Positions 29,559 through 31,963 of a stretch of DNA of 40,859 nucleotides are shown here, piece by piece (the first letter of the stretch is position 1; each line of letters starts with the position of its first letter). Source of the DNA: a virus (taxonomy: Duplodnaviria; Heunggongvirae; Uroviricota; Caudoviricetes); the IMG/VR virus record IMGVR_UViG_2597489870_000008, one strand, 5' to 3'. The notes beneath the pieces were generated by a model. It worked only from the letters and a program-made list of their open reading frames with translations, did not search any database and was not told the DNA's origin. Made by a program: the position numbers and the translations under genes.

Positions 29559-29881
29559 ACTTTCAGCTCCCTCTCATGTAACCAGTGGGCTGCACGCAGC
29601 CTGGCGTTTTCCTCACCGGCAAGCAGTGAGCGGATAATCCCGACCGCCTCGCTGTCGTCGTCCTTCACCGCGGTATGAAGCGTGATGCCCCGGGCCACGC
29701 CACGCTTTATCGTGATGACGCCTTTTTTCTCCAGTGCGCGAAGATGCTCCACCGCTGCATTCACTGAACGGTATCCCAGCATGGTTGCCACCTCCTGATT
29801 GGTTGGCGGGAAACCACGTTCTTTCTGATAAGAAATCAGCATATCCAGCACCTGCTGCTGGCATTGAGTTAACGTCGTCAT
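29555..29881 (-). CDS. LexA N-terminal DNA-binding-domain protein (no peptidase domain)
   Basis: 108-aa ORF; MTTLTQCQQQVLDMLISYQKERGFPPTNQEVATMLGYRSVNAAVEHLRALEKKGVITI aligns by eye with the LexA N-terminal domain ([58 protein letters not shown]). Confidence 0.65.
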   Translation of the reverse strand: MTTLTQCQQQVLDMLISYQKERGFPPTNQEVATMLGYRSVNAAVEHLRALEKKGVITIKRGVARGITLHTAVKDDDSEAVGIIRSLLAGEENARLRAAHWLHERELKV

Positions 29882-30531
29882 GCCGCCATCTCCCTGACCA
29901 GTTTTTCCGCCTGCTGGCGAACCTGCGCCAGAAACGCCTCACCACATGCCTCAAGTTCATCGCGCCCGATGTAGCTGATTGCCGGTCCCTTCCAGGTCTT
30001 GTCAAAAACAGCAATAGCACCAGCGAAAAAAGCTCCTGTCGGTACCTGCTTCTCGTCTTTCGGGATAAACCAGACAGGCAGTTCAAAACCAATACGCCCG
30101 CGAATAAAAGCAATATGATCTGCATCTTCCGGCCACCACACTTCGCTGGTGGCAGCTTTGATCAGGAAAACATAGCGCCCGCCCTTATCACGCATGGCAC
30201 TGGCATGTTTCATGATGTAACGCATGCCGGTGATGTATTGCCCCTCATGCTGACTGGCGCGGCTGTATGGGGGATTACCAAAGGCAGCACCTTTAAGCTC
30301 CGCAAGACGTTCTGACCAGTCATGCGCCAGCGCGTTGTCTTCCGCCGTGTAATACGCGGCACATTTGGCGTTATCACCGTCAGTGAACAGATCCAGAACA
30401 AACGGGCCAAACAGGGTGTTAATTCCCCAGAAAATGTTGTCCGGCGTGCGCCACTGATCGCCCACTTCCTTCAGTTCATGGGCTGGTTTGTTCCGCAGTT
30501 CCACCAGCGCCTGGCAATATTTATTACTCAT
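29878..30531 (-). CDS. Phage N6-adenine DNA methyltransferase (Dam-like)
   Basis: ORF with the NPPY motif (AFGNPPYSRA) characteristic of amino-methyltransferases; start at the Met at 30531 overlapping the upstream stop. Confidence 0.75.
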   Translation of the reverse strand: MSNKYCQALVELRNKPAHELKEVGDQWRTPDNIFWGINTLFGPFVLDLFTDGDNAKCAAYYTAEDNALAHDWSERLAELKGAAFGNPPYSRASQHEGQYITGMRYIMKHASAMRDKGGRYVFLIKAATSEVWWPEDADHIAFIRGRIGFELPVWFIPKDEKQVPTGAFFAGAIAVFDKTWKGPAISYIGRDELEACGEAFLAQVRQQAEKLVREMAA

Positions 30532-31025
30532 TAAGCCCCCACGTAATTCCCTGACAGATACCACTCTTCACCCGATGCAGCGCGCTTGCTGCTTTTCCGT
30601 AAGCACCGCTCACGACGCGCCAGAAAATTGTTTCGTTCTGGCTGGGAGTGGCTTTCACGGAATGCCGCCATCCACACGGTTGCAGCACGACGGTATAAGC
30701 CCCTGGACTCCAGTTCTTCCGCCTGGCGGGTCAGGCACAAAATCACACGGGGATCGTTAGTGCCGACATAGAAATTGCGCACAGATCTGGTTTCACGAAC
30801 TGGTTGTGGTTCCGGTTCCTGCGCTCTCTCAGTCAGGCGCGGGAAATGTCTGCGTGTATCTCCTTCACAACGGTGAGCCACACGCCCACTCTGACGTAAC
30901 TTGCTTGCTGACTGCAGAACGCGCTGCCGTGAGTAACCGGCAAAAGCATCCGCAATATCTCCGGAAGTACAGCCCGGATGGGCTTCAATGAATTTCTGAA
31001 CGTCATTCAAAAGACTCATGCTCAC
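30531..31025 (-). CDS. Regulatory protein with a PerC/Pch-like C-terminal region
   Basis: 164-aa ORF; C-terminal AEELESRGLYRRAATVWMAAF…RRERCLRKS matches the PerC-family signature as I recall it. Confidence 0.45.
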   Translation of the reverse strand: MSMSLLNDVQKFIEAHPGCTSGDIADAFAGYSRQRVLQSASKLRQSGRVAHRCEGDTRRHFPRLTERAQEPEPQPVRETRSVRNFYVGTNDPRVILCLTRQAEELESRGLYRRAATVWMAAFRESHSQPERNNFLARRERCLRKSSKRAASGEEWYLSGNYVGA

Positions 31026-31963
31026 CCCCTGAATCCTGCCGGGATCTGGCTGTAGTCCACGTTGTCGTAACTGGCTTTGAAGTACGGGTCTTCGCGTTTT
31101 TCGGTGTACGTGCTGACGGACGGCGATAAGCGCAGGGAAAGCTCATCCCATTTTTCCCGCAGCTTCGACGGGCTGAGCACGTTACGGCACCAGAACGGAT
31201 CGCGACTGACGCGGCTGTACATCTCGCAGATTTGTTTATGAGTACGACCATCCTGCACACACATCAGGCGAATTTCGTTTGCCCAGGCTGTCCAGTTCGG
31301 TTCTTTGGGACGAACCACCTCGCCGTCACATTCGGCGGCCTGCTCGTACAGGGCGATGATTTTTTTCCAGAGCCACTGTGCGCAGGTCAAATTATCCTGC
31401 GTTCCCCACTGGCGCTTTTTAGGGCTGAATACAACCGCATCAGGATGGCGAGTTAAAAACTCCTGTTCAGCCGTCTGCGTGTCCGGTTGCGAAGCGTCCG
31501 GACGAGAAGTTTTTTTATCTGACGGATCATGTTTTGATTTTACTGACGGATCCCCGCCAGATTCTGACGGGTGAAAACCCGCTTTTTTGCCAGATTTCGA
31601 CGCATCAAATTTTGACGGGTCAGATTTTGATGCGTCAGATTTTGACGGGTCAGAATCTGACAGTTGAGAAAATGCCGCTGCCTGAAGCTTCGCAACGTTA
31701 AGCTGATAAACATTCGACGCATTGCGGTTACCCTGGCGACGCGCCTTACGCGTTAACCAGCCTTCTGCTTCCAGCCGTGCGATAGCCGTTCTGACGGTAC
31801 TCATTCCCGCGCTAATCTGGCGGGCAATGGTTTCAATTGATGGCCAACACACACCTTCGTCATTACTGAAATCAGCCAGGCGGGCCATAATTGCCACGCT
31901 GGATAACTTCATGCCTGACGCAGCGCAACCATCCCATACATAGCCGGTTAATTTAGTGCTCAT
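31022..31963 (-). CDS. Replication initiation protein (O-like replisome organiser) with an internal iteron-encoded repeat
   Basis: 313-aa ORF with an N-terminal winged-helix region (…ETIARQISAGMSTVRTAIARLEAEGWL…) and a central SDSDPSKSDASKSDPSKFDASKSG repeat encoded by DNA iterons; GAGG RBS. Confidence 0.75.
   Translation of the reverse strand: MSTKLTGYVWDGCAASGMKLSSVAIMARLADFSNDEGVCWPSIETIARQISAGMSTVRTAIARLEAEGWLTRKARRQGNRNASNVYQLNVAKLQAAAFSQLSDSDPSKSDASKSDPSKFDASKSGKKAGFHPSESGGDPSVKSKHDPSDKKTSRPDASQPDTQTAEQEFLTRHPDAVVFSPKKRQWGTQDNLTCAQWLWKKIIALYEQAAECDGEVVRPKEPNWTAWANEIRLMCVQDGRTHKQICEMYSRVSRDPFWCRNVLSPSKLREKWDELSLRLSPSVSTYTEKREDPYFKASYDNVDYSQIPAGFRG
31516..31663. repeat. Iteron array (about 8 copies of a roughly 15-bp CAGATTTTGACGGGT-like motif); candidate replication origin within the initiator gene
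   Basis: Tandem degenerate direct repeats visible in the DNA (…cagattctgacgggtg…caaattttgacgggtcagattttgatgcgtcagattttgacgggtcagaatctgacag). Confidence 0.55.

Follow-up and report, generated by a model that had tools for sequence, protein, structure and literature searches.

We identify a candidate replication origin inside the replication initiator gene of a lambdoid temperate phage resembling SfII and SfIV, in a stretch of 40,859 nucleotides (nt) from a virus of the Caudoviricetes (IMG/VR record IMGVR_UViG_2597489870_000008; hereafter the window). The element consists of an array of short palindromes at 31518-31661, with eight cores of the type TGACGG(G/A)TCA, and of an A-rich stretch that adjoins the distal end of the array. 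Comparison of related genes indicates that the repeats are under selection as DNA. We propose from these sequence features that 31505-31661 is a phage replication origin laid out on the lambda plan, a reading to which we give a probability of roughly 70%. That it fires as an origin we infer by analogy with lambda and from its position.

The repeat array and its conservation as DNA

A first-pass annotation of the window had described about eight tandem copies of a roughly 15-bp motif within an O-like gene. Scanning for the 10-nt core TGACGSRTCA with at most one mismatch confirms the number: copies start on the + strand at 31520, 31544, 31565, 31598, 31613, 31628 and 31643, with a weaker one at 31658. 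Start-to-start distances along these eight are 24, 21, 33, 15, 15, 15 and 15 bp. Five copies are thus phased at exactly 15 bp, as the tandem description had it, and the remaining three depart from it at irregular distances (33, 21 and 24 bp), all multiples of 3. When hits are counted on both strands of the whole window, 11 of the 22 fall within about 130 bp; the chance expectation for the window is 10.4 ± 3.3, and 22 hits were reached in 0 of 100 shuffles. Tandem-repeat analysis, which the annotation had proposed as a check, places the strongest tandem repeat of the 40.9-kb window at 31591-31654 (Tandem Repeats Finder: period 15 × 4.3 copies, 81% matches, score 86; alternatively period 30 × 2.1 copies, 88%, score 100). 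Elsewhere in the window we find no second local direct-repeat family with three or more copies, and no alternative repeat cluster or candidate origin.

The + strand across the array reads tctgacggatcatgttttgattttactgacggatccccgccagattctgacgggtgaaaacccgcttttttgccagatttcgacgcatcaaattttgacgggtcagattttgatgcgtcagattttgacgggtcagaatctgacag. On the minus strand, the open reading frame 31022-31963 translates the repeats as SDSDPSKSDASKSDPSKFDASKSGKKAGFHPSESGGDPSVKSKHDPSDKK, in agreement with the predicted SDPSKSD-type linker. The 15-bp phasing is real, but the unit is not a plain 15-mer direct repeat: it is a palindrome of 13-17 bp, GTCA-N5-TGAC, with the extended form CCGYCAGAWTCTGRCGG. On either strand GTCA and TGAC alternate along the array, separated by 5-bp A/T-rich centres. 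Six palindromic units and two half-sites (Table 1) occupy gene nt 303-446, corresponding to amino acids (aa) 101-149, inside a linker (aa 102-161) that AlphaFold2 (AF2) predicts to be disordered. Iteron 6 reads CCCGTCAGAATCTGGCGGG on the gene strand; in relatives the corresponding position is occupied by CCCGCCAGAATCTGGGGG or CCTCCAGAATCTGGAGG. Both half-sites lie in the most A-rich part of the array.

Selection was assessed in a comparison set of five phage relatives and 80 prophage loci, the latter taken from one-genome-per-species contigs, which yielded 79 distinct usable genes. These 79 non-identical genes span more than 25 genera of Enterobacterales, among them Escherichia, Citrobacter, Kluyvera, Enterobacter, Yersinia, Pantoea, Providencia, Proteus and Rahnella. 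Codon choice in the linker is strongly constrained. The serine of the D-x-S motif is encoded by TCA in 397 of 432 cases (92%), against 240 of 1496 (16%) elsewhere in the same genes; the lysine that follows it is always AAA (212/212, 100%, against 627/1018, 62%, elsewhere), and the serine before aspartate is TCT in 202 of 227 cases within the repeats and in 131 of 1496 outside them. The variable codon of the repeats ends in a purine in 381 of 432 cases. Aspartate codons depend on position, being GAC in 241 of 291 cases in the 15-bp array units and GAT in 72 of 72 in the G-D-P units, where GAT makes GATC. As a control for shared descent, invariant serine, proline, lysine and aspartate columns of the N-terminal domain use mixed codons in the same 79 genes (six codons at Ser33, four at Pro41, aspartate about 50:50).

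Two further observations bear on what is being kept. Among 20,000 synonymous recodings of the window peptide, scored for GTCA-N5-TGAC with at most one mismatch, the mean number of sites was 0.42 compared with the 5 observed, and 5 were reached by 1 recoding in 20,000. The DNA motif YCARAWTYTG, which has 605 hits in linkers and 17 in 372 kb of flanking DNA, also occurs out of frame in phiP27 (L004, gene nt 453) and in one prophage locus (L075, gene nt 450), each time beside an in-frame copy. Read in the other frame, the motif gives VLTLQNLDP or VFTRQNLTP in place of F(D/H)PSxSG while its DNA is retained, direct evidence that selection keeps the DNA and not the peptide.

The A-rich stretch, a candidate unwinding element, is the least stable 40-mer of the gene in a nearest-neighbour stability scan and lies in the least stable 2.2% of the window. 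It is retained in 71 relatives, at 64-72% A+T compared with a gene mean of 48%. When applied to lambda O, the same scan picks out the known AT-rich tract (gene nt 437; 78% A+T, 60% A on the coding strand). GATC sites are concentrated in the linkers, at 10.9 per kb against 2.9 per kb in the rest of the genes, a 3.7-fold difference; two of them (31525-31528 and 31549-31552) fall in the A-rich end of the array, and GGGGATCCGTCAGT is present in 47 of the 79 relatives. Around the array, inspected by eye only, the nearest sequences to a DnaA box or an IHF site are 3-4 mismatches from consensus. The lambda-like placement claimed by the first-pass annotation is supported by the position in the linker, by the adjoining A-rich 40-mer and by a C-terminal domain homologous to that of lambda O.

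Table 1. Coordinates of the candidate origin, its units and the associated genes and domains in the window
Feature	Position	Strand, gene position or sequence	Basis or remark
Initiator gene, 313 aa	31022..31963	-	PHROG 391 'replication initiation O-like', E 1e-133; contains the entire candidate origin
N-terminal winged-helix domain, aa 1-98	31670..31963	-	Pfam HTH_36 2e-10, DnaD_N 4e-4; presumed iteron reader
Iteron 1 (first in gene direction)	31649..31661	GTCAGAATCTGAC, perfect GTCA-N5-TGAC palindrome	Sequence, inverted repeats, family consensus
Iteron 2	31634..31646	GTCAGATTTTGAC, 15 bp from iteron 1	Sequence, tandem and inverted repeats
Iteron 3	31619..31631	GTCAGATTTTGAT	Sequence, tandem and inverted repeats
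Iteron 4	31604..31616	ATCAAATTTTGAC	Sequence, tandem and inverted repeats
Iteron 5, degenerate	31589..31601	GCCAGATTTCGAC	Sequence, tandem and inverted repeats
Iteron 6	31554..31570	CCGCCAGATTCTGACGG, 17-bp palindrome	Encodes PSESGG; unit best conserved across the family
Half-site 7	31544..31552	TGACGGATC; overlaps GATC 31549-31552	Core scan, local repeat family
Half-site 8	31520..31528	TGACGGATC; overlaps GATC 31525-31528	Core scan, local repeat family
A-rich candidate unwinding element, 40-mer	31505..31544	Gene nt 420-459	72% A+T, 50% A on the coding strand
C-terminal helical domain, aa 162-278	31130..31480	-	Homologous to the lambda O C-terminal domain, residues about 170-270; AF2 confidence (pLDDT) 61-90
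C-terminal nonapeptide SQIPAGFRG	31025..31051	-	8/9 identical to the E. coli DnaT C-terminus SQIPPGFRG
Phage Dam methyltransferase	29878..30564	-	Pfam Dam 1e-45; two genes downstream, on the initiator's strand

The initiator and the reader of its repeats

The array behaves as part of a cassette with the N-terminal domain of the initiator. The same N-domain and repeats are fused to three types of C-domain (Phg_2220_C in 60 loci, lambda-O-like in 16 and P27-type in 2), so that the array accompanies the N-domain and not the C-domain, and the mosaic breakpoints fall just after the array. Diverged N-domains (51-57% identity) have altered sites in which both arms are changed, namely CCTCCAGAATCTGGAGG in L082 and L084 and GTCCAAAATCTGGAC in L078; the corresponding arm forms are GTCA..TGAC in the main family, GTCCA..TGGAC in L078 and CCTCCAGA.TCTGGAGG in L082 and L084. 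Over 206 distinct sites, the flanking arm base pairs are T/A in 135, C/G in 19, C/A in 16 and T/G in 11. In a Rac-like E. coli prophage the N-domain is 62% identical and the units are of the CCCTCAAATTTTGATGG type. Edwardsiella phage Edno5 combines the same C-domain with an unrelated N-domain and also has a P gene; at the same place it carries the palindrome ATCCCAAAATTGGGAT three times. Because the type of repeat changes with the type of N-domain and the arms change symmetrically, we suggest that the N-domain, probably as a dimer, is the reader of the repeats.

In phage SfV, orf39 (L088:3001-3819, - strand) takes the place of the initiator gene, is followed by the same genes, and has another winged helix-turn-helix (wHTH) N-domain and other repeats. 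Its linker, GDSLGGSANNSLSGAANSPGSAGVAPGGSAGDSP, is likewise made of DNA repeats (GGTAGTGCA and GGAGATTCAC), which suggest that placing an origin inside the linker may be general for modules of this kind.

Across subfamilies the left arms form a series: CCCTCAAA in lambda, CCCTCAAA and CCGTCAAA in the Rac-like prophage, CCGTCAGA in the window and CCTCCAGA in L082. In lambda itself, a sequence just right of the AT-rich tract of ori (L087:1561-1580), TCGTCAGAGAATTCTGGCGA, holds the EcoRI site inside ori and resembles the best iteron of the window family, CCGTCAGAATCTGGCGG, with 3 central bases added. The series and the likeness to lambda may mean that these origins share an ancestor, or may be fortuitous.

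At the protein level, the designation of the gene as O-like holds for its C-terminal half and its architecture; it does not hold for the DNA-binding N-domain, which is of the HTH_36 type and not Phage_rep_O. BLASTP aligns the initiator with lambda O at 30% identity over aa 70-277 (E 6e-25) and gives no alignment of the N-domains; tblastn matches the O genes of lambda, 434, DE3 and Stx phages at 1e-17. Lambda O matches Phage_rep_O (PF04492) at 5.7e-36, and the window initiator has no match to that family at E ≤0.01. The C-domain also matches PHROGs 277 and 9773 (both 'replication initiation O-like') and has weak matches to DnaD-like or replisome-organizer proteins, including PHROGs 2514 and 4880. 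The AF2 model of the N-domain shows helices and a beta-hairpin wing at residues 70-88 (pLDDT 65-87). Weak GntR and MarR matches in Pfam accompany it, and Foldseek relates the model to MarR/ArsR-type wHTH folds, weakly (E ~2e-3), with no confident match for the C-domain and none to a plasmid Rep protein. Sequence searches against solved structures returned only weak MarR-type matches for the whole protein (E 0.006) and none for the tail alone. Pfam gives no Rep_3 match for the window initiator, which has a single wHTH followed by the disordered linker. In databases the gene is labelled just 'helix-turn-helix domain-containing protein'.

The initiator is 98-99.5% identical in DNA to the replication genes of phages SfIV, SfII, vB_EcoS-569R4 and PhiR29. 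It stands on the minus strand in the order P22-Cro-like gene, cII-like gene, two small open reading frames, initiator, PerC-like gene, Dam, a gene for a LexA-DNA-binding-domain protein and RusA; an S24-peptidase repressor gene is transcribed divergently from the cro-like gene. Directly after the initiator, the 164-aa PerC-like frame (30531-31025, - strand) is PerC/ANR-like in its last 60 residues only, has a weak MarR-like match in its N-terminal half, and accompanies the initiator in 17 of the loci that we fetched. A Dam-type gene lies at most 2.5 kb downstream of the initiator in 39 fetched loci. The phage Dam possibly acts on the conserved GATC sites of the candidate origin, and the sites and the gene together suggest an origin control linked to methylation. 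Clustering of GATC in this way is reminiscent of oriC and of P1 oriR.

Origin function and its alternatives

We propose the following sequence of events, modelled on lambda. The N-terminal winged-helix domain of the initiator would bind the sites as dimers, and the bound initiator would form an O-some-like complex. The A-rich stretch beside the array might then melt, aided by early-promoter transcription passing through the gene, and the C-terminal half of the initiator would recruit the host helicase. We conjecture that no phage loader takes part in this recruitment, for which the DnaT-like tail of the protein may serve instead. The first-pass annotation had named absence of the repeats from homologous functional phages as telling against an origin. 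The array is instead full length in 14 of the 14 sequenced phage isolates with this gene, and is likewise full length in the more distant phages 1 LV-2017, phiNP, YeP2 and phiP27.

Several observations weigh against this proposal. The A-rich element is short (40 bp), is less AT-rich than the lambda tract (72% versus 78%) and is not set apart as a tract of its own but runs across the last two half-sites. With a 15-bp phase, adjacent sites face opposite sides of the DNA helix, which is not so at the spacing of lambda. By Pfam, no P, DnaC or helicase (DnaB) gene accompanies the initiator in the window, and among the fetched loci a P homologue is found in only 3 and a DnaC-like gene in 8; with no loader gene, one key step of the lambda mechanism has no identified player. 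In the rare variants P0017, P0031 and P0069 the whole 15-bp array is gone and only SESGGDPSV...DPSD is kept. These prophages may be defective; if they are not, the tandem array can be dispensed with. Common ancestry and concerted evolution among the repeats could also have raised the apparent codon fixation to some extent. Finally, our searches of the accessible literature yielded no account of this origin, although it may be mentioned in the Weigel and Seitz (2006) review, which reportedly catalogues such modules; the SfIV and SfI genome papers mention neither an origin nor repeats.

Variation in unit number deserves a separate comment. Near-identical proteins differ by whole SDxSK units, always in frame, from none in P0017, P0031 and P0069 to at least 10 in P0047 (the variants in our alignment are P0006, P0008, P0015, P0017, P0029, P0031, P0047, P0064 and P0069). 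The 313-aa form is by far the commonest in protein clusters, and few proteins have gained units or carry an in-frame array deletion. Short forms of the array may mark prophages that are dead for replication.

The alternative that we take most seriously, while considering it unlikely, is that the palindromes are protein-binding sites for autoregulation, copy control or exclusion of related phages, with strand opening and helicase loading taking place elsewhere. DNA-level selection and palindromic symmetry imply binding only and not the start of replication, and the A-rich patch is modest; moreover, cloned lambda iterons titrate O and inhibit related phages (PMC3349717, PMC4488673). The window, however, offers no other repeat cluster or candidate origin. 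The position of the array and of the adjacent least stable 40-mer matches the mapped origin of lambda almost to the nucleotide within the gene, and the AT-rich patch is conserved together with the array in 71 genes. In known iteron systems, moreover, the roles of binding site and origin are not exclusive.

Two further readings dispense with an initiator-binding DNA element, and both fare worse. The repeats could act as RNA or single-strand structure, with hairpins in the messenger RNA tuning translation or stability of the initiator and thereby fixing its codons. Gene-strand RNA from 31500-31675 does fold at -53.2 kcal/mol, compared with -33.3 ± 3.9 kcal/mol for shuffled sequences (z = -5.1), and symmetric arm changes would preserve hairpins too. 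Such a fold is nevertheless expected of any array of palindromes and has likewise been noted for the lambda iterons (PMC7466680). Individual stems measure just 4-7 bp, unit number runs from 0 to at least 10 among close relatives with varying spacing, so that no fixed long-range fold is conserved, and the repeat sequence follows the type of N-domain and not the message; we therefore regard this explanation as very improbable. Least probable of all, in our judgement, is that the repeats have no function at the DNA level, being slippage products that encode a flexible low-complexity linker, conserved through recent duplication and offering homology for C-domain shuffling. The predicted disorder of the linker, changes in unit number by multiples of 5 aa and mosaic N-/C-module junctions directly after the array fit such a history. 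It does not account for codons that are frozen across genera in which the synonymous sites of neighbouring invariant residues are saturated, for out-of-frame copies that preserve DNA and not peptide, or for a palindrome content that recoding of the same peptide attains so rarely, and slippage leaves the inverted symmetry unexplained; the frozen codons, the out-of-frame copies and the recoding result contradict a peptide-only explanation.

Within the preferred reading of 31505-31661 as a lambda-type origin, the C-terminal tail may offer a clue to the route to the helicase. The terminal nonapeptide SQIPAGFRG, by its likeness to DnaT, is a possible docking tail for host helicase-loading proteins. 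The same tail ends K-12 Rac YdaU, SfV orf39 and the Rac-like initiator P0101, and the last 76 nt of the initiator are 97-99% identical to many otherwise different phage replication genes. The genes for YdaU and DnaT each lie immediately before a DnaC-type gene. Because of this DnaT-like tail, the SfII and SfIV records label the initiator 'primosomal protein I'. We also compared the C-termini of O-like proteins in the window gene, lambda O (L087:1087-1986), Edno5 (L005:2441-3283), L076 and relatives that lack P. Proteins with a P gene downstream (lambda, Edno5 and L076) end in ...NTDW..., as TNTDWIYGV in lambda and Edno5. GFR-type tails are found on several P-less relatives with the same type of C-domain: GFRG (window), GFRS (L013 and phiNP) and GFRT (L001/Klebsiella phage 1 LV-2017). 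Providencia and Proteus members have a third, longer C-terminal extension. A literature search for the GFRG tail motif gave no relevant result. From these elements one can sketch a loader-less, 'initiator-solo' lambda replicon, in which SQIPxGFRG would dock DnaB-DnaC or the primosome in place of P, and GATC sites with Dam would couple firing or sequestration to phage methylation; we consider this model doubtful as a whole and offer it tentatively.

Two related leads were set aside. Homology of the C-terminal region to the DnaT C-domain was rejected on a profile comparison probability of 0.4%, the terminal nonapeptide alone being common to both. A link to the Rac origin oriJ was also discarded: K-12 YdaU is a DUF1376 protein that is unrelated to the initiator except for the tail, and work on oriJ is therefore not transferable.

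The module is very widespread. Among 5426 complete E. coli genomes, 2103 contain the repeat region, nearly all of them with the full-length array, and the module occurs in the serotype-converting Shigella phages SfII and SfIV and in prophages across Enterobacterales. The K-12 copy at ~2.47 Mb, presumably the CPS-53/KpLE1 remnant (yfdO), lacks the last 30 bases of the 361-base query, at the N-domain-proximal end, and has a whole iteron array. Among fragments of the gene in E. coli chromosomes (L059 and L083), one has the N-terminal 79 aa fused in frame to another sequence, which may be terminase-like, as in an e14 ymfN-type fusion. Circular, phage-sized E. coli records deposited as plasmids also carry the initiator (NZ_CP081716.1, that is L093, of 37.7 kb; CP085522.1; NZ_CP081704.1; NZ_CP081794.1). 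The circular records measure 37-44 kb, and NZ_CP081716.1, the one examined, has no typed replicon in PLSDB. Carriage of the gene without a typed replicon gives a weak hint of autonomous replication, but probably the assemblies captured phage genomes that had been excised or were replicating. We found no mini-replicon among the plasmid records with the gene, all of which are phage-sized or very large.

If the identification is correct, it provides a testable map of prophage replication following induction, and a defined cis element that could serve in compatible vectors or in blocking replication by titration. It would also be a case of one DNA stretch carrying two codes, for a peptide linker and for protein-binding palindromes, with the constraint visible in codon choice and in the frame-shifted copies. 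The combination of no loader and a DnaT-like tail, in turn, is a pointer to how 'initiator-only' phage replicons might obtain the host helicase.

Comparison with known systems

The closest parallel is lambda, whose origin lies in the middle of O: imperfect inverted repeats of 19 bp and, after them, an AT-rich tract that unwinding requires (PMC7466680). In both lambda and the window the repeats fall mid-gene, in the coding sequence of the linker between the DNA-binding N-domain and the C-domain, and are imperfect inverted repeats with an A/T-rich centre (tCCCTCAAAACGAGGGa in lambda, CCGTCAGAATCTGRCGG in the window). An A-rich, easily melted tract lies downstream in lambda, from gene nt 437, and its candidate counterpart in the window starts at nt 420. 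The C-terminal domains are homologous (E 6e-25), and each gene is preceded on its own strand by cro and a cII-like gene. Lambdoid phages and the window family alike differ from relative to relative in how many iterons they have, with residues gained or lost in frame (PMC7466680); the rare variants described here, with units added or with in-frame array deletions, resemble lambda ori deletions and the difference of 4 versus 6 iterons among Stx phages. The six-iteron origins of Stx phages 933W and P27 are among the closest known systems.

The differences from lambda are equally clear. The lambda N-domain is Phage_rep_O, whereas that of the window is HTH_36. Lambda has four 19-bp sites spaced about 21-24 bp apart, and the window has units of 13-17 bp at exactly 15 bp, overlapping or abutting one another. 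Lambda has a P gene and the window none; the O tail reads ...TNTDWIYGVDL, in contrast to the DnaT-like ...IPAGFRG. The window further differs from lambda in its phage Dam gene, downstream of the initiator, and in the conserved GATC sites of the A-rich end.

Iteron plasmids share with the window a winged-helix initiator and repeated sites beside an AT-rich element, as in pSC101 (RepA), R6K (pi), RK2 (TrfA) and P1 (RepA/oriR). They encode no dedicated loader, and their initiators recruit host DnaB-DnaC themselves. P1 oriR, moreover, has clustered GATC sites and is Dam-dependent. Unlike the window, which has palindromes inside coding sequence, iteron plasmids have direct repeats of about 17-22 bp outside the rep gene, and the tandem winged helix (WH1-WH2) of their Rep_3 initiators has no counterpart in the window protein. 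Among the replisome organizers of Firmicutes phages, SPP1 G38P and DnaD-like proteins, the gene for the origin-binding protein contains its own origin. G38P and oriL of the Bacillus phage SPP1 are named in PMC3485210. Systems of the SPP1 type differ from the window in that they encode their own helicase loader and helicase, and their repeat sequences are unrelated.

Taken together, the arrangement is textbook lambdoid, and origins that combine iterons with an AT-rich element are of a known kind. The novelty lies in this specific family: a reader of the HTH_36 type, GTCA-N5-TGAC sites at 15 bp with a unit of five codons, a cassette joined to three C-domains, and no loader.

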